Program-made: the position numbers and the translations under genes
Origin: Mycolicibacterium smegmatis
GTDB lineage: Bacteria > Actinomycetota > Actinomycetes > Mycobacteriales > Mycobacteriaceae
Direction of reading: 5' to 3'
Length of the DNA: 32,000 bases
Assembly (NCBI RefSeq): GCF_001457595.1
Contig: NZ_LN831039.1
Location: 4,830,001-4,862,000, forward strand
Shown: in pieces, positions 1 to 20,438 of the stretch
How positions within the stretch are numbered: the first letter of the stretch is position 1
Layout: every line of letters begins with the position of its first letter
Notes under the pieces: generated by a model
Databases searched by the model: none
Told to the model about the DNA's origin: nothing
What the model saw: only the letters and a program-made list of their open reading frames with translations

Positions 1-3000
1 AGGAGTACTACGACCCCGAGCCAGGGGTGCCCGGCCGCTCCGTGTCGAAGTGGGGTGCCTTCCTCGACGACCCGGCCGCGTTCGACCCGGAGTTCTTCGG
101 CATCACCGAGCGCGAGGCCGCCGCGATCGACCCGCAGCACCGGCTGCTGCTGGAGACCGCGTGGGAGGCCGTCGAGCACTCCGGCCTGAACCCCGCCGGT
201 CTCGCCGGATCGGCCACCGGCGTCTTCATGGGCCTGACCCACAACGACTACGCACACCTTGCTGCCGACGCCAAGGCACTGGAGGGTCCGTACGGCTTCA
301 CCGGCACCAGCTTCAGCCTCGCCTCCGGCCGCATCGCCTACGCACTCGGCGTGCACGGCCCCGCCATCACGGTCGACACGGCGTGCTCGTCCAGCCTCAG
401 CGCCATCCACATGGCCTGCCGCAGCCTGCACAACGGTGAGAGCGACGTCGCGCTGGCCGGCGGTGTGTCGGTGCTGCTGGAACCGCGCAAGGCCGCTGGC
501 GGCTCGGCCGCAGGCATGCTGTCCCCGACCGGCCACTGCCACGCGTTCGACACCGCGGCCGACGGCTTCGTCTCGGCCGAGGGCTGCGTGGTGCTGACCC
601 TCAAGCGACTCGACGACGCCGTCGCAGACGGCGATCGGATCCTCGCCGTCATCCGCGGCACCGCCACCAACCAGGACGGCCGCACGGTCAACATCGCGAC
701 GCCGTCGGCCGATGCGCAGGCCAAGGTCTACCGCATGGCGCTGAAAGCGGCCGGCGTCGAACCCGGCACCGTCGGCCTCGTCGAGGCCCACGGCACCGGC
801 ACGCCCGTCGGCGACCCGCTCGAGTTCTCCAGCCTGGCCGAGGTGTACGGCACAGACGGTCCCTGTGCGTTGGGCTCGATCAAGACCAATTTCGGTCACA
901 CGCAGTCCGCGGCGGGCGCGCTCGGCGTCATGAAGGCCGTACTTGCGCTGCAGCACAACGTCATTCCGCAGAACCTGCACTTCACCCGCCTGCCCGACCA
1001 GATGGCCGAGATCGAGACGGGCCTGTTCGTCCCCGAGACCATCACGCCGTGGCCGGTCCGGGAGGGCCAGCCCCGCCGCGCCGCGGTCTCCGCGTACGGC
1101 CTGTCCGGCACCAACGTGCACGCGGTCCTCGAGCAGGCGCCTGAGAGCCCGGCCGAGACTGCCGCAGAGGCGATTTCACCCAAGGCCGGCAACGCGCTGG
1201 TGTTCCCGGTGTCCGCCAGCTCCGCCGATGCGCTGCGCTCGACGGCACAGCACCTTGCCGACTGGCTGCTGCGAAGCGGGGACGGCAACGGTCGCGGACC
1301 CGCGATCGATCTCGGCGACCTCGCGTACACACTGGCCCGCAGGCGCGGGTTCCGTGCTGCCCGTTCGGCTGTGCTCGCAGGCGACCGCGGCACGCTGGTC
1401 GAGGGGCTGCGGCAGATCGCCGACGGTGAGGCGATGCCACAACATGCCGTGACCAACGACGACCGTGGGCCGGTGTGGGTGTTCTCCGGGCAGGGTTCGC
1501 AGTGGGCCTCGATGGGCGCCGAACTGCTCGACCGGGAACAGGCTTTCGCGGCCGCCATCGCCGAACTGGAACCGCTCATCGCGGCCGAGTCCGACTTCTC
1601 CGTCACCGAGGCCCTGACGGCCTCGGAGACCGTCACCGGCATCGACCGGGTGCAGCCCACCATCTTCGCGGTCCAGGTCGCGCTGGCCGCGGCCATGCGT
1701 TCGCACGGCGTCGTGCCCGGCGCGGTCATCGGTCACTCGATGGGCGAGGTTGCCGCCTCGGTCGTCTCGGGCGCACTCTCACTCGAAGACGGCGTGAAGG
1801 TCATCTGCCGCCGCACGCGCCTGATGACCCGCATCGCGGGCTCGGGCGCCATGGCGATGGTGGAACTCCCAGCCCAGCAGGTGCTTTCCGAACTCGCCAG
1901 CCGCGGCGTCGATGACGTCGTGCTGTCGGTGGTCGCCTCACCGCAGTCGACCGTGGTCGGCGGCGCGACCGCCTCGGTGCGCGAACTGATCGAGATGTGG
2001 GAGTCGCGCGGTGTGATGGCGCGCGAGATCGCCGTCGACGTCGCATCGCACTCGCCGCAGGTCGATCCGATCCTCGACGACCTCATCGAGGCGCTGGCCG
2101 ATCTGGACCCCGCCGAACCGGAGATCCCGTACTACTCGGCGACGCTGTACGACCCACGGGACTACGCCGACTACGACGCCTACTACTGGGCGGACAACCT
2201 GCGTCACACCGTGCGATTCTCGGCGGCGGTCCAGGCTGCGCTCGAGGACGGCCACCGCGTGTTCGCCGAACTGTCGCCGCACCCCCTGCTGACCCACCCC
2301 GTCGAGCAGACGGCCCGCAGCCTCGACATGCCGCTCGCGGTGTTCGCCGCGATGCGCCGCCAGCAGGAGATGCCGCACGGTCTGCTCGGTTTCGTGGCCG
2401 ACCTGCACAGTGCCGGTGCCGCCGTGGACTTCTCGGTCCTCTACCCCACCGGCCGGCTGCTCGACGCCCCGCTGCCGGCGTGGACGCATTCGACGCTGCT
2501 GCTCGACCGCGAACTCGAGTCCTCGGCGCCCGGTGTGCCGTCGGTGTCGGTGCACCCGCTGCTGGGATCGCACGTCGTGCTGCCGCAGGAGCCCGAAGAG
2601 CACCTCTGGCAGGGCGACGTGGGTACCGAGGCGCATCCGTGGCTGTCCGACCACCGGGTCCACCAGGTCGCGGTGCTGCCCGGTGCGGCCTACTGCGAGA
2701 TGGCCCTGGCCGCCGTCACGCCCGTGCTGGGCGACACCGGCGAGGTCCATGATCTGAAGTTCCACGACATGCTGCTGCTCGACGACGCCACCCCGGTGTG
2801 GGTCTCGGCGGCCGTGACCGCCCCCGGCACCGCCGAATTCGGTGTCGAGACGCACCAGTCGGGTGATCGCACCCAGCGTGCGACCGCGGTGCTGCGTGGC
2901 GATGTCGACGCCGAACGGCCCGCCGCGCACTCGATCGATGCCCTCCTCGCCGCACACCCCAACCGGGTGGACGGCGACGAACTGCGTGCCGGTTTCGGCA

Positions 3001-6000
3001 CCGTCGGCATCGGGCACGGCGCGGCCTTCGCCGGCCTGTCCGAGGCCTATGTCGCGACCGCGGCCGAACCCACCGTCGTTGCCGCAGTGGCCCTTCCGGG
3101 CCCGCTGCGGTCCGGACAGCGCGGTTACACGGTGCACCCGGCACTGCTCGACGCGTGCTTCCAGTCGGTGATCGCCCACCCCGAGGTCCAGAACATCGCC
3201 AGTGGCATGTTGCTGCCGCTCGGTGTGCGCAGGCTGCGGGCGTATGGGTCCACCCGCAACGTGCGGTACTGCCTGAGCCGCATCGTGAAGGCCGACAGCT
3301 TCGGTGTCGAGGCCGATCTCGAACTGCTCGACGCCGACGGCACCGTGCTGCTGAGCGCGATGGGTCTGCAACTCGGCACGGGCAATTCGGACAAGGCCGA
3401 AGAAGAGCGCCTGCTCGACGAGCGCCTGCTCACCATCGAGTGGCAGCAGCGCGAACTTCCCCGCCCCGAGGGCTCGGAGACGGTCGACGCCGGCTCGTGG
3501 CTGGTGATCCTCGCCGGAGACGATGACGAGAACCCGCGCGCAGCAGGTGTTGTCAGCGCGCTGATCGGTGCGGGCATGCCCACGACCACCATGGCGTGGT
3601 CGCACGATGCCGACCACGACGCACAGGCCGCGGCACTCACCGCGCGCCTCGACGAGCAGCCGCTCGCAGGCGTTGCGGTCATCGTGGGAGACAGCGAGAC
3701 CGGCACCGACGCACACGACGTGGGAGCCGACGCTCGCCGTGGCGCCGACCACGTGCGTCATCTGGTGCGCATCGCGCGTACGTTGGCCGACGCCGTGGGC
3801 GAGCCGCCACGTCTGTACGTCGTGACCCACCGCAGCCAGCACGTGCTCGACACCGACGAGCCGTACCTGGAGCACTCCGGTCTGCGCGGCCTGATCCGGG
3901 TGGTCGGCATGGAGCATCCGCGGTTGCGCGCCACCCAGATCGACGTCGACGACAGCACCGCCCACGAGGCCCTGGTACGCCAGCTGCTGTCCGGATCGCC
4001 CGAGGACGAGACCGCGTGGCGTGACGGACAGTGGTACGCCGCACGGCTGTGCCCGTCGCCGCTGCGCGCGGCCGAGCGTCGTACCGCGGTGGCCGACAAC
4101 GCTTCGGAAGGCATGCGACTGGTGGTCCGCAACCCGGGCGACCTGGAGTCCATGGAGCTGGTGACGTTCGAACGTGGCACGCCGGGACCGGGGCAGATCG
4201 AGGTTGCGGTCAAGGCGTCGAGCATCAACTTCGCCGACGTCCTCGTCGCGTTCGGCCGGTGCCCCAGCTTTGACGGCCGCCTGCCCGAGCTGGGATCGGA
4301 GTTCGGTGGCGTCGTCACCGCGGTCGGGCCCGGCGTCACGACGCACCGCGTCGGCGACCGCGTCGGCGGTGTTTCGGCCAACGGTTGCTGGAGCAACTTC
4401 GTGACATGTGAGGCCGATCTGGCCACCAAGCTGCCCGAGGGCATCAGCGAACACGAAGCCGCCGCAGTCGGTTTGGCGTACGGCACGGTGTGGCTGGGCC
4501 TGACGGAGCTCGCGCGCATGTCGGCAGGCGACAAGATCCTGATCCACTCCGCCACCGGTGGTGTGGGCCAGGCCGCGATCGCCGTGGCACGTGCGGCCGG
4601 AGCCGAGATCTACGCGACGGCTGGCAGTGAGAAGCGCCGCCAACTGCTGCGCGACTGGGGCATCGAGCACGTCTACGACTCGCGCACCACCGCCTTCGCC
4701 GACCAGATTCGCACCGACACAGACGGTTACGGCGTCGACATCGTGCTGAACTCGGTGACCGGACCCGCGCAGCGGGCCGGCCTGGAACTGCTCGCGTTCG
4801 GTGGGCGTTTCGTCGAGATCGGCAAGCGCGACATCTACGCCGACACCCGCCTGGGGCTGTTCCCGTTCCGTCGCAACCTGTCGTTCTACGCCGTCGACCT
4901 CGCGCTGATGACCGTGACGCATCCGCAGAAGATCCGGGATCTGCTCGCGACGGTCTACCGCCTGATCGCCGACGGCACACTGCCGTTGCCCGAGATCACG
5001 CACTACCCGCTCGAAGAGGCCGCGACCGCGATCCGCATCATGGGCGGTGCACAGCACACCGGCAAGCTCGTGATCGACATCCCGGACACGGGTCAGAGCC
5101 AGGTCGTGGTGCCGCCCGAGCAGGTCCCGGTGTTCCGCGGCGACGGCGCCTACGTGATCACCGGCGGTCTCGGTGGCCTCGGCCTGTTCCTCGCCGAACG
5201 GATGGCCGCCGCGGGATGCGGGCGCATCGTGGTCAATTCGCGTAGCGCTCCGTCGACACGGTCCAGCGAGATCATCGAGCTGATCCGTGCCACGGGCGCC
5301 GACATCGTGGTCGAGTGCGGCGACATCGCCGAGCCCGACACCGCGCGCAGGCTCGTCGCGGCGGCGACCCAGACGGGTCTTCCGCTACGCGGCGTGCTGC
5401 ACGCCGCGGCGGTGGTCGAGGACGCCACGCTCGCCAACATCACCGATGAACTCGTCGAGCACGACTGGGCACCGAAGGTGTACGGCGCGTGGAACCTGCA
5501 CCAGGCCGTGCAGTCCGGCGGACCTGCGACCTCCGAGCTCGACTGGTTCTGCGCGTTCTCCTCGGCCGCGGCCCTGGTGGGCTCGCCCGGTCAGGGTGCG
5601 TACGCCGCGGCGAACAGCTGGCTGGACGCCTTCATGCAGTGGCGACGGGCCCAGGGCCTGCCCGCGACGTCGATCGCCTGGGGTGCCTGGGGTGAGATCG
5701 GCCGCGGCACGGCAATGGCCGAGGGCGACAACGCGATCGCGCCCGACGAGGGTGCGTACGCGTTCGAGGCGATCCTGCGCCACGACCGCGTGTACAACGG
5801 CTACGCCCCGGTTCTCGGTGCGTCATGGCTGACCGCGTTCGCGCAGCGCAGCCCGTTCGCCGAGCTGTTCCTGGCCGATACGCAAGGCGCCTCGGAGACC
5901 AGGAAACTGCGTTCCGAACTCGCCGCGCTGCCCCGTGAGGAATGGCCGACACACCTGCGCCGGCTGATCGCCGAACAGGTCGGCCTGCTGCTGCGCCGCA

Positions 6001-6188
6001 CGGTGGACCCCGACCGTCCGCTGTCCGAGTACGGTCTGGATTCGTTGGGACACCTGGAACTTCGTACCCGAATCGAAACCGAGACCGGTGTCCGCGTCAG
6101 TGCGATGGACATGACGACCATCAGGGGTCTGGCACAACGGTTGTGCGAGATGCTCGACACCGACGACGCCGTGTCGGCCCCGTCGTGA
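1..6188 (+). CDS. pks5: Type I iterative (Mas-like) polyketide synthase, 5' end cut by window edge; KS-AT-DH-(structural KR)-ER-KR-ACP, no thioesterase
   Basis: One uninterrupted 6.1-kb frame (frame 3, open from nt 3: [13 protein letters not shown]..., so the start lies upstream). KS motifs: DTACSSS (Cys codon 384-386), EAHGTGT (783-803), [12 protein letters not shown] motifs: GHSMGE (Ser 1737-1739) and VASH (2040-2051, methylmalonyl-type). DH: [13 protein letters not shown] (His 2652-2654). ER: [11 protein letters not shown] (4545-4577). KR: TGGLGGLG (5160-5183) and YAAAN. ACP: GLDSLG (Ser 6042-6044). Stop TGA 6186-6188. The symbol is by locus analogy to mycobacterial LOS clusters, not from a search. 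Confidence 0.93.
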
Positions 6189-6245
6189 TCGAAATCCTCA
6201 GTACATCAACCGCAACCGGCAGTCATCGAAGGGAGGAGTAGAACC

Positions 6246-7688
6246 ATGTTCGAGCTGACCGACATCCAGAACTGGGACGACGCTCCTGGCAAACATGTGT
6301 CGTGGGGCCCCTCCCCGAGCACGGTGGCGAAGGTAGCCGAGGCCCCGGTGAGCGATGTGCCCGCGAGCTATCAGCAGGCCCAGCATCTGCGCGCGTACCG
6401 CGAGCACACCGCTCGCGGCGTGCCGATGGCACGGCTCACCGTTCCGGTGTGGAACATGGACGGCCAGTGCGACATGCGGGCGATGTCCCATGTGATCAAC
6501 GCGTATCTGCGCCGGCACGACACCTACCACAGCCGTTTCGAGTTCACCGTCGACGACCGGATCGTGCGGCGAAAGTTACGCAGCCCGCGGGATCTTCGTT
6601 TCGTGCCCACCGATCACGGTGTGCAGACGTGCGACCAGTGGCGTGAGCACATCCTGGACACCCCGGGGCCGCTGCAGTGGGACTGCTTCCGCTTCGGGAT
6701 CATCCAGCGCGCCGATCACTTCACGTGTTACATGAGCGTGGACCACGTGCACGTGGACGCGACGTTCCTCGGGTTGATGCTCATCGAGATCCACCTGATG
6801 TACGCGGCGCTGGTGAGCGGCGGCGCCCCGATCACGTTGCCGCCCGCGGGCAGCTACGACGACTACTGCGTGCGGCAGCGCAAGTACACCTCGGGGCTGA
6901 CGCTGGACTCTCCCGAAATCAAGGAGTGGGTGACCTTCCTTGAGGGCAACAACGGCACCATGCCCAAGTTCCCCCTGCCGCTCGGCGACCTGTCGGTGCC
7001 GTGCACCGGTGATCTGATGACGGTCCAACTGCTCGACGAACCCCAGACGCAGGGCTTTGAAAAGGCTTGCCTCGCCGCGGGTTCACGGTTCATCGGTGGG
7101 GTCTTCGCCACCGCCGCGCTGGCCCAGTACCAGCTGACCGATATCGACACCTACCACGTCATCACGCCGACGACGACCCGTGGGACCGAGGCCGAGGTCA
7201 TGGCAACCGGATGGTTCACCGGCACCGTGCCGATCACGGTTCCGGTCGGATCGTCGTTCGCCGAGACGGCCCGCACCGCACAGCGCTCGTTCGATTCGGG
7301 TCTGTACCTCGCGCACGTCCCGTTCGACCGCGTGCTCGAGCTGGGCGCGACCGAACGTGGCCTGCGGGCCCCGGATCCGGGCGTGCCGATGGTGTCGTAT
7401 CTCGACGCCACCGCGGCCCCGCTCTCGCCCGCCGTCGTCGCCGAATGGAACCGGATCAACGGGCGGATCTTCAGCGAGATGGGTGCGGCCAACCAGGTCG
7501 GCATGTGGGTGAACCAGTTCGGCAGCGGTACGTGGATCACGGTGGCGTTCCCGAACAATCCCGTTGCCCGCGCCTCGGTGCAGGAGTACGTCGACGCATT
7601 CCGGTCGGTGTGCGTCGCGGTGGCCGAGGGACGCCACGACGACGTGCCCACCACGCGTGTCAACGAGCTCGATCTCAGATCAGCGTGA
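6246..7688 (+). CDS. papA4: PapA-family polyketide-associated acyltransferase (condensation-domain fold)
   Basis: ATG 6246 is preceded by GGGAGGAG (6231-6238). The protein is 480 aa. It has an HxxxD catalytic motif, DHVHVDA (His 6744-6746, Asp 6756-6758), about 165 aa from the N-terminus. It sits immediately downstream of a TE-less PKS, as papA genes do in SL-1, DAT/PAT, PDIM and LOS loci. The symbol is tentative, by synteny with pks5. Confidence 0.82.
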   Translation: MFELTDIQNWDDAPGKHVSWGPSPSTVAKVAEAPVSDVPASYQQAQHLRAYREHTARGVPMARLTVPVWNMDGQCDMRAMSHVINAYLRRHDTYHSRFEFTVDDRIVRRKLRSPRDLRFVPTDHGVQTCDQWREHILDTPGPLQWDCFRFGIIQRADHFTCYMSVDHVHVDATFLGLMLIEIHLMYAALVSGGAPITLPPAGSYDDYCVRQRKYTSGLTLDSPEIKEWVTFLEGNNGTMPKFPLPLGDLSVPCTGDLMTVQLLDEPQTQGFEKACLAAGSRFIGGVFATAALAQYQLTDIDTYHVITPTTTRGTEAEVMATGWFTGTVPITVPVGSSFAETARTAQRSFDSGLYLAHVPFDRVLELGATERGLRAPDPGVPMVSYLDATAAPLSPAVVAEWNRINGRIFSEMGAANQVGMWVNQFGSGTWITVAFPNNPVARASVQEYVDAFRSVCVAVAEGRHDDVPTTRVNELDLRSA

Positions 7689-10533: not shown

Positions 10534-12267
10534 ATGACCCGCAGTTCTGTCATAGGTGTTCTGCGCGAGCGAGCGAGCCTGCAACCCGGCGACGTCGCAT
10601 TCACGTTCATCGACTACGACACCGACCCCGAGGGCGTCGCGCACACCCTCACGTGGTCGCAGCTGAATCGTCGCGTGCAGAGCCTGGCATACGAGATGCA
10701 GGCGCGCAGCGCAGTCGGCGACCGTGCCGTGATCCTCGCGCCGCAGGGCCTCGACTACGTCGTGGCGTTCCTCGCGTCGTTGCAGGCCGGGAGGATCGGC
10801 GTCCCGCTGTCGGTGCCATTCCCCGGTGTCCACGACGAACGTGTCACCGCGGTCCTGCGCGACACCGCGCCTTCGATCGTGCTCACCACGTCGGCGGTGT
10901 CCTCGCACATCGCCGAATATCTCGAACCGCAGGCGGGTCAGGCCGCGCCGTGGATCGCCGAGATCGACACGCTCGACCTCGACACCCGGCGTCGCCCGGT
11001 CAAGCGCGAGCAGGCGCCGGAAACCGCCTACCTGCAGTACACCTCGGGCTCCACGCGGACACCGGCCGGCGTCATGGTGTCGCACCGCAACCTGACGGCG
11101 AACTTCGAACAGGTCGTCGCCGGCTTCTTCCCCGACAACATCGCGCCGTCGGACACCACCTCGATCTCGTGGCTGCCGCTGTATCACGACATGGGACTCA
11201 TGCTGGGCCTGTGCGCACCGGTCCTCGGCGGCTGGCACACCGTGCTCATCAGCCCGTTCGCGTTCCTGGCCAAGCCCGCTCGATGGATGCAGCTTCTGGC
11301 GACCCACCCGGCCACTGTGACCGCGGCCCCCAACTTCGCGTTCGACCTCGCGGCGAGGAAGACCTCGGACGCCGACCTCACCGGGATGGACCTCGGTGAC
11401 GTGCGGTGCGTGCTCAGCGGCAGCGAGCGGGTCCACGAGCCGACGCTGCGTCGGTTCTCCGACCGCTTCGCCGCGTTCAACCTCCACGAGCAGGCGCTGC
11501 GCCCCTCGTACGGTCTGGCCGAGGCCACCTTGTTCGTCGCGACGCGTGAAACGGGGCACCCGCCGAAGGTCGCCCGGTTCGCCGCGCAGGAGCTCTCCGA
11601 CGGCCGTGCCGTACCGTGCGACGACGAAAACGGCACCGCGCTGGTGAGTTACGGCATGCCCGAGTCGCCGACGGTGCGCATCGTGGATCCGCAGACCCGG
11701 GCCGAATGCCCGACGGGAATCGTCGGCGAGATCTGGGTGCACGGCGAGAACGTGTGCGCGGGTTACTGGGAGCAGTCCGAACGCACCGAGACGACGTTCG
11801 GCGCGTCGATCGACAGTCCGTCCTCGGGGACGCCGACCGGGCCGTGGCTGCGGACCGGCGACCTCGGGTTCGTCTCGGGCGGTGAACTGTTCATCGTCGG
11901 TCGCATCAAGGACGTCGTGATCATCCGCGGGCGCAACCACTACCCCGATGACATCGAGGCCACCGTGCAGGAGATCACGCGTGCCCGGGCCGCGGCGATC
12001 TCGGTGGACAGGGACGACGCCGAGCACCTGGTGGTCATCGCCGAGGTGCGGGAGAACCAGAATCCCGACGTGAGCCCCGCCGAGTACCTGGCCGACCTCG
12101 AAGGTGAAGTGGTGGCAGCGGTTTCCCGCTCACACGGCATCATCCCGGCCGACCTGGTGCTGGTGCGCCGCGGGGCGATTCCCATCACCACCAGCGGTAA
12201 GGTGCGCCGCGCGTCGTGCGCGGAGCAGTACCGTGACGACACGTTCGCCCGCCTCGTCCACGCGTAG
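10534..12267 (+). CDS. fadD25: Fatty-acyl-AMP ligase (FAAL-type FadD) that would load the PKS
   Basis: ATG 10534 follows a GGAAAGG box. The N-terminus LQPGDVAFTFIDY... is typical of mycobacterial FAALs. AMP-binding motifs YLQYTSGSTRTPAGVMVSHRN, GEIWVHG, GDLGF and TTSGKVRR are present. 577 aa. The symbol is by analogy with Rv1521 in the equivalent M. tuberculosis region and is tentative. Confidence 0.88.
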   Translation: MTRSSVIGVLRERASLQPGDVAFTFIDYDTDPEGVAHTLTWSQLNRRVQSLAYEMQARSAVGDRAVILAPQGLDYVVAFLASLQAGRIGVPLSVPFPGVHDERVTAVLRDTAPSIVLTTSAVSSHIAEYLEPQAGQAAPWIAEIDTLDLDTRRRPVKREQAPETAYLQYTSGSTRTPAGVMVSHRNLTANFEQVVAGFFPDNIAPSDTTSISWLPLYHDMGLMLGLCAPVLGGWHTVLISPFAFLAKPARWMQLLATHPATVTAAPNFAFDLAARKTSDADLTGMDLGDVRCVLSGSERVHEPTLRRFSDRFAAFNLHEQALRPSYGLAEATLFVATRETGHPPKVARFAAQELSDGRAVPCDDENGTALVSYGMPESPTVRIVDPQTRAECPTGIVGEIWVHGENVCAGYWEQSERTETTFGASIDSPSSGTPTGPWLRTGDLGFVSGGELFIVGRIKDVVIIRGRNHYPDDIEATVQEITRARAAAISVDRDDAEHLVVIAEVRENQNPDVSPAEYLADLEGEVVAAVSRSHGIIPADLVLVRRGAIPITTSGKVRRASCAEQYRDDTFARLVHA

Positions 12268-12271
12268 CACC

Positions 12272-13102
12272 ATGGGGACGAAAACGCCGGTCGTGGCGGC
12301 CATCCCGAACTACAACATGGGCCACAACCTCAACAGGTTGCTTCCCGAGGTGCTGGCGCAGGGTTACGACGCGGTGTACGTGCTCGACGACGCCTCGACC
12401 GACGACAGCGCGGATGTGGTGCGCCAGTTCGGCAGCGACGTGAAATTCGTGCGCAGTCCCCGCAACCAGGGGGCCGGCGCCAACCGCAACCAGATCATCG
12501 ACTGCGTCGACGACAAGACACTCATCCACTTCGTCGACGCCGACATGGAACTGCGTACCGACCGGATACCCGACACCGCGCGAGAAGTGTTCGCACGCTA
12601 CGAACATCGCGGTGTCGGCATGATCGGCGGTCTGGTGTGCCGTCACGACGGAACGCAGGAACCGCACAACTACGGTGCGGTGTTCTCCGCGTGGGGTGGT
12701 CTCACCTCGGGGCTTCCGCTTATGATCGACCGGCTGCGCGACAGGCCCAGGCTCGCGGCCGCGGCGCAGCGCATTGCCGCACCGCTCATGAAGGAGTGGC
12801 CCAACATCCTGGCCACACCCCAGCCCACCCCGGCGTACTGGCTGCACGAGGGCAACATGCTGGTCGACTCGGGTGTGCTGCGATCACTGGGTGGATACGA
12901 TCCGGACCTGCGTTGCCACGAGGCCCAGGATCTGGCGATCCGCATGGAAAAGCGTGGCATCGGACGACAGTTCGACCCTGACATCAGGGTCGTGCATCTG
13001 CACATCGACGTTCGCGGCAAGAACCGCAACCGGTGGGCCAACCACGCGGTGCGGCAATTGATCCGCAAGCACGGGCTGATGCGCTGGCTGTGCGACCGCT
13101 GA
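12272..13102 (+). CDS. Family 2 (GT-A) glycosyltransferase
   Basis: ATG 12272 lies 4 nt after the fadD stop. The track ORF start at 12104 would overlap fadD. The N-terminus VVAAIPNYNMGHNL...YVLDDASTDDS and the DxD motif FVDADME are classic GT2 signatures. 276 aa. Confidence 0.85.
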   Translation: MGTKTPVVAAIPNYNMGHNLNRLLPEVLAQGYDAVYVLDDASTDDSADVVRQFGSDVKFVRSPRNQGAGANRNQIIDCVDDKTLIHFVDADMELRTDRIPDTAREVFARYEHRGVGMIGGLVCRHDGTQEPHNYGAVFSAWGGLTSGLPLMIDRLRDRPRLAAAAQRIAAPLMKEWPNILATPQPTPAYWLHEGNMLVDSGVLRSLGGYDPDLRCHEAQDLAIRMEKRGIGRQFDPDIRVVHLHIDVRGKNRNRWANHAVRQLIRKHGLMRWLCDR

Positions 13103-15731: not shown

Positions 15732-16616
15732 CTACCGAGTTACCGGGTCCACCGGTGGAGAGAAACTCTCCAGGAACGACTTGGGCTGACGCAGACGAAT
15801 GGCAGGCCACCGCGTGAACGACGCGGGGCCCAGGGCGCTCCACAGCGTGGCAGCGGTCCCTTTCGAGGGCTCCAGACCGTAGTCGTGGCGAAGGTGCTCG
15901 CGGTACGGCAACGCGGGGCCGAAGAGGATGTTTCCCGAGTGGTTCTCGCCGGTGTCGACGTGATAGACCGCGCCGGGGAAGGGCAGCGGCTCCAGGGCAC
16001 GACCGCGGTCACGCCACCAGTCGTAGGCGAAACCGTGCTCGAGCGACCGTTCCAGCCGCTCCCCGAAGGCGTCGGCGATCGCACGCTGGCCCGAGGTGAC
16101 GGTGAGTTCGGGCGGTACCTCGTAGGCCGACCAGGGGATGATGAACGACGTGCCGCAATAACGATAGAAGTTGCGACGCAGCGCGTAAGCGTTTCGGCGC
16201 CGCGAGTAGATCCAGCCCCGTGTGCTCACCCAGCCGGGCGCCCCCGGGTGCGCGGCGACGAAAGCCGCGATATCGCGATGCACGAAATCGTCGGCATCGA
16301 CGAACATCACATGATCGGGGGCATACTCCCGGGCGGCAACCAGCCCTATCGCGTTCTTGGTGCCCTTGTCCCAGATCACCGAAGCCGGACCGGTGCGGGG
16401 ACCGTTGTGGGTCGACGGCGGCGGGAAGTCGACCTCGACGAACACGGCCCGCGGTGGGAGTTCGAACGCAGGCAACCGATTTCCGACGATGATGATGAGA
16501 TGGTCGTCACAGGACTGCCGGCTGACCGATCGAAGCGTGTCCTGAAGCAGCGCTTCGACGCGACCGTAATCCGCGGAGTTCCGCGGATGTCGCAAGGTGG
16601 TGATGAAGGCCAGCAT
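15732..16616 (-). CDS. Putative GT-A-fold glycosyltransferase (Rv1518-like)
   Basis: 294 aa. The N-terminus MLAFITTLRHPRNSADY...LLQDTLRSVSRQ and the DxD motif FVDADDF are typical of GT2-like enzymes. The codon pattern is strongly GC3-biased. The family call comes from motif memory only. Confidence 0.6.
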   Translation of the reverse strand: MLAFITTLRHPRNSADYGRVEALLQDTLRSVSRQSCDDHLIIIVGNRLPAFELPPRAVFVEVDFPPPSTHNGPRTGPASVIWDKGTKNAIGLVAAREYAPDHVMFVDADDFVHRDIAAFVAAHPGAPGWVSTRGWIYSRRRNAYALRRNFYRYCGTSFIIPWSAYEVPPELTVTSGQRAIADAFGERLERSLEHGFAYDWWRDRGRALEPLPFPGAVYHVDTGENHSGNILFGPALPYREHLRHDYGLEPSKGTAATLWSALGPASFTRWPAIRLRQPKSFLESFSPPVDPVTR

Positions 16617-16743: not shown

Positions 16744-17811
16744 TCACACACGGGAGACCGCCAGGCCGGTCCGCAGCACCCCGTAGTCGGTGTCGAGTCG
16801 CGCGCGCAGCACGTCCACGGCCGCGCGGGTCTTCTCCCGGATCGCCGCGGCATCGTCCAGCGTCGCCAAAACCCGCTCCACCACGGCAGACACACTCAAC
16901 GCATCGGTACGCAACAACGACCGCTCATCATCGATCGACAACGCGAAATCACGGCACTTGGGCTGATACTCCAACGAGATCACCGGCGTCTGCGACAACG
17001 CCGCCAAAATCCCCGCATGCAAACGGCTCACGATCACCGCCGAACAACCAGCAAGCTCCGCAGCCGCCCCCGCCGCATCGACCGGCGCCACGATCCGAGC
17101 CCCCGTACCCGCCAACGCCTGCTCGGTCCACCGACGATCCGCACCGTTCATCAAGATCCCCACAAACCGGAACCCACGCGCCGAAAGCTCCCGCACCGCC
17201 CCAGAAATCACATCAGCCACACCAGCGGGGTCGTGGCCCCACAAGTCGTCGCCGAACCCGAGGTTCAACCCGATCACACCGTCCTGCGGCACCACCTGCG
17301 GACGATCCAACAACAACGCCGGATCACCGGCCACCGTCACCTCAAGACCCGCATCCGCCAGCAACTGCGCACTCCGCGGCCCCCGCACCGAGACCACCCG
17401 AAACCGCGACAACAACGGAATCCAGCGCCGCAACTCATCAGGCCCCGAGCCGCTGCGGCGTCCTTCGAAGACGGGGTCTTCCACGCCGACGCCGATGGCG
17501 TAACTGCCGTGTGTACCTGTCAGTTTCAGGCCGTGGCCGGCCACGCGCCGCCAATGGCGCCTACCGATCAGGGTTCCGCCGCCGATCACCTGCGCGCTGC
17601 GCCGCAACAAGCGGTTACGACCCGACACCACCGCACGCAACCGCTCCCCCGGCAACACCGGAAGATCCACGAACCCCGCGCCCGGCAACTGCGCACACAC
17701 CGCGTCATAAATCGCGTCATCACCCAGATTGCCCCGACCATGCCACCCCAGATAACCCACCAAGGGACGCACAGTGGCCGCGCCCTCGACCGGTCGGCGT
17801 GATGTGGTCAT
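16744..17811 (-). CDS. Polysaccharide pyruvyl transferase (copy A)
   Basis: 355 aa. The N-terminal GYLGWHGRGNLGDDAIYDAV and the SRLHAGILA block match the pyruvyl-transferase (CsaB/WcaK/PssM-like) family. The ATG (17809-17811) overlaps the stop of copy B (17808-17810) as ATGA. Confidence 0.8.
   Translation of the reverse strand: MTTSRRPVEGAATVRPLVGYLGWHGRGNLGDDAIYDAVCAQLPGAGFVDLPVLPGERLRAVVSGRNRLLRRSAQVIGGGTLIGRRHWRRVAGHGLKLTGTHGSYAIGVGVEDPVFEGRRSGSGPDELRRWIPLLSRFRVVSVRGPRSAQLLADAGLEVTVAGDPALLLDRPQVVPQDGVIGLNLGFGDDLWGHDPAGVADVISGAVRELSARGFRFVGILMNGADRRWTEQALAGTGARIVAPVDAAGAAAELAGCSAVIVSRLHAGILAALSQTPVISLEYQPKCRDFALSIDDERSLLRTDALSVSAVVERVLATLDDAAAIREKTRAAVDVLRARLDTDYGVLRTGLAVSRV
16791..17778. 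repeat. Tandem direct repeat, unit 1 (body of pyruvyl transferase copy A)
   Basis: Compared by eye with 17855-18845. 16791-17243 is identical to 17855-18307. There is one substitution at 17244/18308 and a 3-nt (gtc) insertion in unit 2. 17245-17448 is identical to 18312-18515. A diverged patch spans 17449-17570. 17571-17778 matches 18638-18845 with one mismatch (17671/18738). Confidence 0.95.
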
Positions 17812-18884
17812 GACGCGTGTGGTCCGAGTTCGGCTCGCAAGACGTCGTACTGGGTGTCGAGTCGCGCGCGCAGCACGTCCACGGCCGCGCGGGTCTTCTC
17901 CCGGATCGCCGCGGCATCGTCCAGCGTCGCCAAAACCCGCTCCACCACGGCAGACACACTCAACGCATCGGTACGCAACAACGACCGCTCATCATCGATC
18001 GACAACGCGAAATCACGGCACTTGGGCTGATACTCCAACGAGATCACCGGCGTCTGCGACAACGCCGCCAAAATCCCCGCATGCAAACGGCTCACGATCA
18101 CCGCCGAACAACCAGCAAGCTCCGCAGCCGCCCCCGCCGCATCGACCGGCGCCACGATCCGAGCCCCCGTACCCGCCAACGCCTGCTCGGTCCACCGACG
18201 ATCCGCACCGTTCATCAAGATCCCCACAAACCGGAACCCACGCGCCGAAAGCTCCCGCACCGCCCCAGAAATCACATCAGCCACACCAGCGGGGTCGTGG
18301 CCCCACAGGTCGTCGTCGCCGAACCCGAGGTTCAACCCGATCACACCGTCCTGCGGCACCACCTGCGGACGATCCAACAACAACGCCGGATCACCGGCCA
18401 CCGTCACCTCAAGACCCGCATCCGCCAGCAACTGCGCACTCCGCGGCCCCCGCACCGAGACCACCCGAAACCGCGACAACAACGGAATCCAGCGCCGCAA
18501 CTCATCAGGCCCCGACGCATTCTGCGTTCGCGGGTACGCCGGGTCCTCGACCCCTGCGCCGATGGCGTAACTGCCGCGCGTTGCGGTCAGCTTCAGGCCG
18601 CGGGCCACGAGCGGACGGAAATAGCGTGTGCCCAAGAGGGTTCCGCCGCCGATCACCTGCGCGCTGCGCCGCAACAAGCGGTTACGACCCGACACCACCG
18701 CACGCAACCGCTCCCCCGGCAACACCGGAAGATCCACAAACCCCGCGCCCGGCAACTGCGCACACACCGCGTCATAAATCGCGTCATCACCCAGATTGCC
18801 CCGACCATGCCACCCCAGATAACCCACCAAGGGACGCACAGTGGCGGCGGTCGCACGATTGTCGGTTGCCCGGTTCAGGCTCAT
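17808..18884 (-). CDS. Polysaccharide pyruvyl transferase (copy B)
   Basis: The track ORF extends to 19004. ATG 18884 (MSLNRATDNRATAATVRPLVGYLGW...) gives an N-terminus colinear with copy A. 358 aa. It has the same family motifs as copy A and is nearly identical to it over most of its length. Confidence 0.75.
   Translation of the reverse strand: MSLNRATDNRATAATVRPLVGYLGWHGRGNLGDDAIYDAVCAQLPGAGFVDLPVLPGERLRAVVSGRNRLLRRSAQVIGGGTLLGTRYFRPLVARGLKLTATRGSYAIGAGVEDPAYPRTQNASGPDELRRWIPLLSRFRVVSVRGPRSAQLLADAGLEVTVAGDPALLLDRPQVVPQDGVIGLNLGFGDDDLWGHDPAGVADVISGAVRELSARGFRFVGILMNGADRRWTEQALAGTGARIVAPVDAAGAAAELAGCSAVIVSRLHAGILAALSQTPVISLEYQPKCRDFALSIDDERSLLRTDALSVSAVVERVLATLDDAAAIREKTRAAVDVLRARLDTQYDVLRAELGPHAS
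17855..18845. repeat. Tandem direct repeat, unit 2 (body of pyruvyl transferase copy B)
   Basis: Partner of 16791-17778. The offset is 1064 nt, then 1067 nt after the codon indel. The identical 60-aa antisense ORFs in the track (16949-17131 and 18013-18195) independently show the identity. Confidence 0.95.
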
Positions 18885-19757: not shown

Positions 19758-20438
19758 CTACCGGCACTCGGCAAGTCCGAGTCGGTTGTTGCGGCGGAAC
19801 TCGACCGCACCCACGACGTCGTCCGAACGGCCGATCTCCAGCCATGCCTCGTGCATGCCCTGGCCGTATGTGATGTCGTCGAACAAGACCAGGCCGCCAG
19901 GCGACATCAGCGGCTTCAGGATCTCCCACTGCTGCATGACGAAGTCGTAGGTGTGGATTCCGTCGACGAACGCGATGTCGATGGATCCCGGAACCTCCGT
20001 CACATGTTCCTCAAATGCCCCACGCGTCAACGTGAAACGCTGCGTCAGTTGCGCGATGGACCGCTCGGCGACGGCCGCCCATGAATCGTTGATCTCGAAG
20101 CTGTACAGGTGTCCGGTGCCGTTCGACTCGATGCCCACACCGAAATACATGCCCGACACCCCGAATCCCGACCCGAACTCGACCACGGTCTGGGGCTTCC
20201 GTTGCATGACCAGCCACGCGTAGAGGTCACCCTGGAACGGGGGCGAACTGACGTCGCGCGGAGTGAATTTGGCTTCCGGCATGTCGTATTCGGGCGCGAG
20301 GGCCTGGGGGCCCAGTTGTTCGTGGTTGGCAGCCAGGATGGCTTCTATCCGGTCTTTGTGCGGTGCGGGCGGGAATCGGCTTGGCATATCGGCGATCCAG
20401 CCACCGCGCGTGATCCACTTCAACGAGCGCGTAAACAT
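19758..20438 (-). CDS. Class I SAM-dependent O-methyltransferase (family-3-like)
   Basis: 226 aa. Motif I is VVEFGSGFGVSG. An acidic residue ends beta-2 (YSFE). The IDIAFVDG and LVLFDD blocks are typical of cation-dependent O-MT-like enzymes. There is no SD, but a -10-like TAGACT lies 6 nt upstream of the ATG. Confidence 0.75.
   Translation of the reverse strand: MFTRSLKWITRGGWIADMPSRFPPAPHKDRIEAILAANHEQLGPQALAPEYDMPEAKFTPRDVSSPPFQGDLYAWLVMQRKPQTVVEFGSGFGVSGMYFGVGIESNGTGHLYSFEINDSWAAVAERSIAQLTQRFTLTRGAFEEHVTEVPGSIDIAFVDGIHTYDFVMQQWEILKPLMSPGGLVLFDDITYGQGMHEAWLEIGRSDDVVGAVEFRRNNRLGLAECR

Follow-up and report, generated by a model that had tools for sequence, protein, structure and literature searches.

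A 42-codon segment spared from gene conversion separates two predicted lipooligosaccharide pyruvyltransferases of Mycolicibacterium smegmatis and may set their acceptor specificity

The 32-kb window analyzed here (the whole stretch of 32,000 nucleotides from Mycolicibacterium smegmatis, with positions counted from its first letter) is identified by its gene content as the lipooligosaccharide (LOS) locus of this species, and it harbors two adjacent pyruvyl transferase genes whose differences are concentrated in one short segment. The Pfam content of the window matches that of the locus, 100%-identical database proteins are named M. smegmatis, and the primers of a published study map to it uniquely (PMC11139207). 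In the Pfam scan the genes follow the order pks5-like polyketide synthase, PapA-type condensation enzyme, FadD, GT2, Sap/Gap transporter-like protein, PE-PPE protein, a 294-amino-acid (aa) protein, two PS_pyruv_trans proteins, two methyltransferases, GT1 and MmpL. This order is the same as that of the M. smegmatis LOS island MSMEG_4727-4741 (Etienne 2009 as cited in PMC8408660; PMC11139207). The portion MSMEG_4727-4737 was recently linked to broad phage resistance in M. smegmatis.

Both pyruvyl transferase genes lie on the minus strand. Copy A (16744-17811) encodes 355 aa, with a possible alternative GTG start at 17760 (codon 18) that would yield a 338-aa form, and its protein is 100% identical to the M. 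smegmatis database proteins P0001/P0004. Copy B (17808-18884) encodes 358 aa beginning with MSLNRAT, a start that was chosen by homology to the genes of M. goodii and of a metagenome contig (L002). The two genes overlap at ATGA (17808-17811), where the TGA that ends copy B shares bases with the ATG of copy A. The published MSMEG_4734-4737 primers fall within the genes of the window for which they were expected: the forward primer of the quantitative reverse transcription PCR assay for MSMEG_4736 falls at 17518-17535, inside the diverged segment of copy A, that for MSMEG_4737 falls at 18579-18596, inside the diverged segment of copy B, and the two assays use one common reverse primer (PMC11139207). 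These positions therefore identify copy A as MSMEG_4736 and copy B as MSMEG_4737.

Alignment of the two copies revealed a mosaic. A diverged patch covering codons 81-122, located at 17449-17570 in copy A and at 18516-18637 in copy B, comprises 122 nucleotides (nt) in both genes, keeps the reading frame without any indel and is identical at 76 of 122 positions (62%), leaving 46 differences. The 5' tract that precedes it, codons ~12-80 (copy A 17571-17778, copy B 18638-18845, minus strand), contains 1 substitution in 208 nt, and the 3' tract that follows it, codons 122-341 (copy A 16789-17448, copy B 17853-18515, minus strand), differs over 660 nt by 1 substitution and a 3-nt indel. Together, the 868 nt of flanking sequence differ by two substitutions (17244 and 17671) and the one 3-nt indel, that is, they are 99.8% identical. 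A preliminary description of this DNA had reported two collinear, in-frame 122-nt segments between flanks of more than 99% identity, and its coordinates, content and patch peptides proved correct, as did the identity island that it quoted, GCCGATGGCGTAACTGCCG, which occurs exactly twice (17491-17509 and 18558-18576; 0 expected by chance). Its wording of "otherwise identical" paralogs applies to the near-identical flanks only, since the first ~13 codons, the last ~14 codons and a one-codon insertion differ as well.

Within the patch, two variable stretches surround a conserved island. In copy A (minus strand) these are sub-patch 1 (IGRRHWRRVAGHGLKLTGTH, 17509-17568), the island GSYAIG (17491-17508) and sub-patch 2 (VGVEDPVFEGRRSGS, 17446-17490), and the residues that define its type, as described below, are R84 (17560-17562), W87 (17551-17553), G117 (17461-17463) and S120 (17452-17454). 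The copy B patch reads LGTRYFRPLVARGLKLTATR, GSYAIG and AGVEDPAYPRTQNAS, and its four type-defining residues are T, F, R and N. Outside the patch, copy B has a one-codon insertion (GDDDLWG at 18300-18320, minus strand, versus GDDLWG at 17236-17253 in copy A) and a diverged 3' tail (QYDVLRAELGPHAS, 17808-17852, minus strand) that resembles the B-type gene of L002, whereas the 3' tail of copy A (TDYGVLRTGLAVSRV, 16744-16791, minus strand) resembles that of M. goodii; the insertion is B-like as well. Differences between the copies are clustered far beyond expectation (Fisher's exact test, p = 2e-42 over all sites and p = 4.5e-21 when synonymous sites alone are counted). Synonymous divergence (dS, Nei-Gojobori) is 0.018 in the 5' core, 1.30 in the patch and 0.006 in the 3' core, with a corresponding nonsynonymous divergence (dN) of 0, 0.33 and 0. 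The saturated dS of the patch rules out that a recent duplication was followed by fast adaptive change; as read from these values, the patch is a relic of old divergence and the remainder of the gene was homogenized recently.

Both patch types recur among relatives of the two genes. The A-type motif, G-R-x-x-W-R ... D-P-x-F-x-G-R-x-S-G-S, is the consensus among 120 homologs, and because it is also present in ~40%-identical relatives outside the mycobacteria (Acidimicrobiia, Jatrophihabitans and Actinocatenispora), it is considered ancestral. The B-type motif, G-T-x-Y-F-R ... R-[RT]-x-N-A-S, which comes with one extra residue in GFGDD[D]LWG, is less common and recurs in L002 and at no fewer than eight genome loci; overall, the type is seen at about ten other loci of mycobacteria, often beside an A-type gene. 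Among the 120 listed proteins, only P0007 (the copy B cluster), P0010, P0012 and P0116 harbor a B-type patch, and the last three are not named M. smegmatis. By this distribution the A type is ancestral and widespread, and the B type is rarer and restricted to mycobacteria. When the 72-aa B patch was searched against a database of 5.8 billion proteins, the sole match was a 76-aa fragment, and the same query gave 46 matches in a representative library; since the 50% clustering of this library merges the A and B types, B-type genes cannot be enumerated from it. Both types were found at one locus in L003, in L008 (divergent orientation), in L011 and L017 (3-4 kb apart) and in M. vaccae (L026), where they form a B-then-A tandem as in M. 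smegmatis.

Phylogenetic analysis gave conflicting topologies for the patch and for the rest of the gene. In the neighbor-joining (NJ) tree of the patch, copy B groups with the L002 B-type gene (99% bootstrap) and copy A with M. goodii (95%), whereas copies A and B never group together (0%); in the NJ trees of the 5' and the 3' cores they are sisters with 100% bootstrap each. The copy B patch shares 80% DNA identity and 90% protein identity with that of L002. A comparison of alignment columns over the whole protein, based on 156 A-type and 13 B-type relatives and excluding copies A and B themselves, showed that only R84T, W87F, G117R, S120N and the insertion discriminate between the types; no consistent A/B signal was found outside the patch, insertion aside, among the relatives compared. 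The four residues are conserved in 97-99% of A-type and in 77-100% of B-type genes. They are embedded in invariant residues (GGGT at 77-80, G83, R88, G107, G109 and V110) and nearly invariant ones (E111-D112-P113 and S122). The preliminary description had proposed measuring dN/dS in the patch; within types the ratio is about 0.12 for A (0.098/0.80) and about 0.07 for B (0.07/0.94), which points to purifying selection. The claim that the patch escapes homogenization is borne out by its dS compared with that of the flanks (0.006-0.018), by the separate orthologs of each patch and by the type-separating columns that fall within it.

The link between insertion and patch type is not strict. In P0011 and L050 the patch is of the A type and the insertion loop has a B-like form of three residues, DDE, and L061 has a B-type patch without the insertion. 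A further gene, in L039 (5947-6951), is a mosaic within the patch itself, the first half being B-like (GVRYFR) and the second half A-like (GRGSGSG).

Pairs from other loci document both the original divergence and its erasure. The A/B pairs of L011 and L017 are uniformly 68-74% identical with a dS of 0.8-1.2 throughout, and ancient divergence therefore once spanned the whole gene. In L008, an inverted A/B pair (4428-5420 and 6001-7011), codons ~191-310 are 100% identical and the patch is 71% identical; in the M. vaccae tandem, identity reaches 85-100% in windows that start at codons 131-311 and is 67% in the patch. A comparison of two single genes from different species, M. goodii A and L002 B, gave 81% identity in the flanks versus 56% in the patch, a pattern that fits homogenization of the flanks before the lineages split, and these flanks may just as well be orthologs. 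The divergence of the patch in unconverted pairs does not exceed that of the remaining gene (70-72% vs 68-74% identity). Codons 311-340 are 50-60% identical in unconverted pairs and 100% identical in M. smegmatis; they were converted despite their divergence, and divergence is therefore no mechanical barrier to conversion.

Conversion can also be followed among strains of M. smegmatis. The one-codon insertion of copy B, a B-type signature in other species, is the remnant of a second B-specific island, which is intact in L062 and L064 (both 1928-3004; GDDDLWGRDP, with seven substitutions), half eroded in the strain of the window (GDDDLWGHDP) and fully converted in L061 (3001-4074; GDDLWGHDP). 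Because this island is polymorphic among M. smegmatis strains, gene conversion is still ongoing. The main patch, in contrast, is intact in all five M. smegmatis sources, with one within-type single-nucleotide polymorphism, so that the homogenized patch that the preliminary description had named as a possible refutation was not encountered among these five. In every lineage compared, the retained conversion tracts spare the patch. The mosaic is accordingly documented by sharp dS shifts, incongruent trees, unconverted reference pairs and tract polymorphism within a species.

Several additional loci show related rearrangements. In L028, two B-type copies (4028-5062 and 6001-7014) with 98-100% identity flank a homolog of the 294-aa gene. 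As judged from these loci, the family undergoes conversion or duplication widely and regardless of orientation. Two strains of M. goodii (L001:8001-9340 and L065:4001-5300) carry a single pyruvyl transferase gene with a copy-B-like N-terminus and an A-type patch and tail, as would be expected after a deletion by recombination between homogenized 5' cores. M. goodii lacks the 294-aa gene and has kept a remnant of its 5' end downstream. One M. smegmatis assembly (L063) was considered as a single-copy strain and rejected, since it contains a 100-N assembly gap (2756-2855) within the gene pair instead of a deletion. A 1025-bp contig of Mycobacterium sp. GA-1841 (L050) joins the C-terminal part of one copy to the N-terminal part of the next and represents a collapsed tandem.

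Copies A and B match PF04230 (PS_pyruv_trans) with 85.3 and 88.2 bits, respectively (cut-off 25.3), over positions 1-279 of the 280-position profile. They are predicted to be ketal-pyruvyltransferases that depend on phosphoenolpyruvate (PEP) and act on an LOS sugar. Orthology to CsaB was rejected, since the two proteins score 73.8 and 72.0 bits with the equivalog model TIGR03609, far below its cut-off of 213.1, with a match in the C-terminal half only. AlphaFold2 models of both copies (predicted local distance difference test (pLDDT) 86, predicted template-modeling (TM) score 0.85) have the same two-domain, GT-B-like layout of alternating beta-strands and alpha-helices. Foldseek returned GT-B enzymes, with Pvg1p (5ax7) among the top matches (E = 6e-7, probability 1.0, TM score about 0.5). 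HMMER profile alignments to 5ax7, which covered only its N-terminal G-D and RLH motifs, placed G-D31 on G-D106, which contains the catalytic Asp of Pvg1p, and R263-L-H265 on the PEP-binding R337-L-H339 (the DRLHA motif); D31 and R263-L-H265 are invariant in the family alignments and identical in copies A and B. R143/R146 and K285 are invariant too, and their candidate counterparts, the second PEP-binding Arg (Pvg1p R217, CsaB R148) and a Lys (Pvg1p K361, CsaB K328), were assigned by spacing only (112 residues from D31 to R143, compared with 111 from D106 to R217 in Pvg1p).

According to the secondary structure of the AlphaFold2 models, the patch starts in the beta3-alpha3 loop that immediately follows GGGT, continues over helix alpha3 and strand beta4, and ends in the beta4-alpha4 loop that follows GVEDP. 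Its two loops are located at the C-terminal edges of the strands of the N-domain sheet and, in sequence, come after the D31 loop and before the RGPRS loop, which carries the putatively PEP-binding R143/R146. In Rossmann-like and GT-B folds, this edge of the sheet lines the cleft between the domains. A location of the two loops near the active site, for which the preliminary description had proposed structural mapping, would be suggested by this topology. Pvg1p of S. pombe and CsaB of Paenibacillus alvei share PF04230 with the M. smegmatis copies, and their acceptor-contact or specificity residues (CsaB T94, Pvg1p H168) follow the Gly-rich loop by a few positions, where sub-patch 1 starts. Docking placed CsaB S88, equivalent to Pvg1p G159, at PEP and CsaB T94 at the acceptor, and mutation of Pvg1p H168 alters acceptor preference. 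By numbering offsets, good to within ~5 residues, these positions (Pvg1p G159/H168 and CsaB S88/T94) would correspond to residues ~80-94, that is, to sub-patch 1. The comparison has its limits: Pvg1p is only about 15% identical to copies A/B, and the acceptor of the latter is a trehalose-based glycolipid, unlike the N-glycan or cell-wall polymer modified by Pvg1p or CsaB.

The chemistry of the M. smegmatis LOS provides a possible role for two enzymes. Its glycan is 4,6-Pyr-3-O-Me-Glc-(1-3)-4,6-Pyr-Glc-(1-4)-Glc-(1-6)-Glc-(1-1)-Glc (PMC6801904), and LOS-A is dipyruvylated and LOS-B1/B2 are monopyruvylated (bioRxiv preprint). The occurrence of di- and monopyruvylated forms therefore calls for two pyruvylation steps on different acceptors. 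In a delta-lsr2 background, deletion of MSMEG_4737 alone restores phage sensitivity and adsorption, abolishing LOS-dependent resistance, and MSMEG_4737 alone complements this deletion (PMC11139207), so that copy A would not substitute for copy B. One primer used for the MSMEG_4737 knockout and the single guide RNA (sgRNA) used for CRISPR interference match both copies (17008-17032/18072-18096 and 17181-17200/18245-18264).

Among the neighboring genes, two have homologs at other loci of the gene family. The 294-aa gene (15732-16616, minus strand), which adjoins copy A downstream, encodes a conserved protein without a Pfam or NCBIfam match; a VDADDF-like motif suggests a GT-A-type glycosyltransferase. 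Its homologs are present at every B-type locus with enough flanking sequence and also at many A-only loci, and it was consequently rejected as a marker of B-type co-occurrence. Close homologs of the Methyltransf_24 gene (19758-20438) are found at 6 of the 8 B-type loci with enough flanking sequence (L002, L011, L017, L026, L028 and L054) and are absent from the large set of A-only loci in which the 294-aa gene and Methyltransf_23 occur. Such an association could tie the B type to an O-methylated sugar and is suggestive only, because there are counter-examples: M. goodii has a Methyltransf_24 homolog with an A-type gene only, and L003 and L008 have none within 6 kb. At the beginning of the window lies the pks5-like polyketide synthase gene (27-6188). 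The longest open reading frames of FadD (10534-12267, plus strand) and GT2 (12104-13102, plus strand) overlap by ~160 nt; the true start of GT2 is probably further downstream, as the M. goodii homolog is called at 272 aa versus 332 aa here.

The explanation that we favor, and regard as the probable one, is that MSMEG_4737 (B) and MSMEG_4736 (A) are an ancient pair of LOS pyruvyltransferases under concerted evolution, in which a determinant of 42 codons, most likely one for acceptor specificity, is shielded by selection. They would be an old pair of ketal-pyruvyltransferases with a GT-B fold that diverged into two types. Because the copies sit head to tail, gene conversion between them would have recurred and overwritten nearly all of the sequence of both. 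Tracts extending over codons 81-122 would not have been retained, leaving the ancient divergence in place there, presumably because selection guards the patch as the holder of the sole residues that consistently separate the types (R84/W87/G117/S120 versus T/F/R/N). Situated in two loops that presumably face the substrate, the patch would set the acceptor that each enzyme pyruvylates, and copies A and B would jointly build dipyruvylated LOS-A. The earlier suggestions that the patch marks the functional difference between the copies, and that the copies divide Glc and 3-O-Me-Glc between them, are plausible, with indirect support from the two pyruvylated glucoses of LOS-A and from the phenotype of the MSMEG_4737 deletion. 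A more specific version, which we put forward tentatively and with less than even confidence, is that the four switches R84T/W87F/G117R/S120N pick the glucose that is modified, the A-type enzyme making the LOS-B forms and the B-type enzyme adding the second pyruvate of LOS-A and with it the phage barrier.

Several observations weigh against the proposed concerted evolution around a selected acceptor determinant. In the published deletion of MSMEG_4737 (17808-18767), the annotated ATG of copy A is lost as well; this loss weakens the argument for non-redundancy, and the GTG at codon 18 of copy A could still serve as a start after this deletion. The tracts of L008 and M. vaccae spare the whole N-terminal domain, so that the limits of the patch itself are drawn by the M. 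smegmatis clade alone. Since the single gene of M. goodii is of the A type and that of L002 of the B type, one type can be enough for some LOS variants. Monophyly of the B type received 25% bootstrap support in the NJ tree of the patch DNA, a short and saturated sequence. With regard to structure, the placement of the patch at the cleft was derived from the topology of the predicted secondary structure and from numbering offsets relative to Pvg1p and CsaB, and the beta4-alpha4 loop was modeled with moderate confidence (pLDDT 63-79). Finally, which acceptor either single enzyme would use is purely conjectural.

The conserved types could reflect selection on something besides the acceptor, such as PEP binding or catalytic geometry, the order of action, a partner transferase or membrane association. 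The G-R-x-S-G-S of the A type is similar to an anion-binding loop, docking put CsaB S88, which lies at the N-terminal edge of the corresponding region, at PEP instead of the acceptor, and the Methyltransf_24 homologs at most B loci with enough flank could be read in the same way. However, both pyruvates of LOS-A are the same 4,6-ketal from the same donor, D31 and R263-L-H265, together with R143 and K285 as assigned by spacing, are identical in the two copies, and the Methyltransf_24 association is not clean, as M. goodii, L003 and L008 show. We consider such another function unlikely. Nor does an origin without any selection account well for the data. Two independent tracts (codons ~12-80 and 122-341) may simply have happened to flank a patch that is not yet converted, given that conversion tracts are short and stochastic, that the insertion island is visibly disappearing among strains, and that the tracts of L008 and L026 avoid the entire N-terminal domain without singling out the patch. 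Against such chance sparing stand the intact patch in all five M. smegmatis sources, the conservation of the type-defining residues (97-99% and 77-100%) with a within-type dN/dS of about 0.1, and the contrast between flanks and patch in M. goodii A versus L002 B, which fits long-standing homogenization, with orthologous flanks equally possible. Chance sparing thus appears quite improbable to us.

The other origin put forward in the preliminary description, import of the patch from a third homolog, is disfavored. It would involve a recent tandem duplication, after which one copy took up a short segment from a foreign source or a third copy by conversion or horizontal recombination. Such a history would agree with the near-identical flanks and could have drawn on the B-type patches of other species as donors. 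Yet three segments of copy B are B-like (the patch, the insertion island and the 3' tail) and would require three imports, and M. vaccae shares the B-then-A order. The GC content of the patch, overall and at third codon positions (GC3, 0.76-0.80, equal to the rest of the gene), shows no anomaly, and a foreign origin was rejected on this basis. The search for a third donor copy that had been suggested found none within the 32-kb window. We therefore regard import as highly improbable.

If the two genes are indeed an old pair whose determinant is protected by selection, they offer direct experimental access to acceptor recognition in this enzyme family, for which the structural record consists of docking models and a single crystal structure, that of apo Pvg1p. 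The differences between the paralogs have been erased except in 42 codons and the termini, which narrows the search for specificity to a handful of residues, and MSMEG_4736 and MSMEG_4737 may be assigned a testable division of labor in making dipyruvylated LOS-A. The mosaic also has practical consequences. Near-identical repeats disrupt assemblies, as illustrated by one 100-N gap and one collapsed 1-kb contig, and the genetic reagents are ambiguous, with a published sgRNA that matches both genes and a published deletion that takes the start codon of copy A. In the literature searched on M. smegmatis LOS, the mosaic, the A/B types and gene conversion are undescribed, and the pyruvyl transferases are treated as ordinary genes of the cluster.

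A gene-conversion mosaic is a known phenomenon; its instance in M. smegmatis and the A/B typing are new to the literature searched. Concerted evolution with a selected, unconverted segment is exemplified by the red and green opsin genes, by RHD/RHCE and by the bacterial tufA/tufB. Similar to these systems, the M. smegmatis pair has flanks with near-zero dS beside an ancient segment, a tree that depends on the segment analyzed, and conversion that recurs in several lineages and is polymorphic within a species. Unlike in these systems, the spared segment is only 42 codons long, delimited sharply by the invariant motifs GGGT on one side and S122 with E126-L127 on the other, and it coincides exactly with the type-defining residues, so that the pair amounts to a natural chimera experiment.

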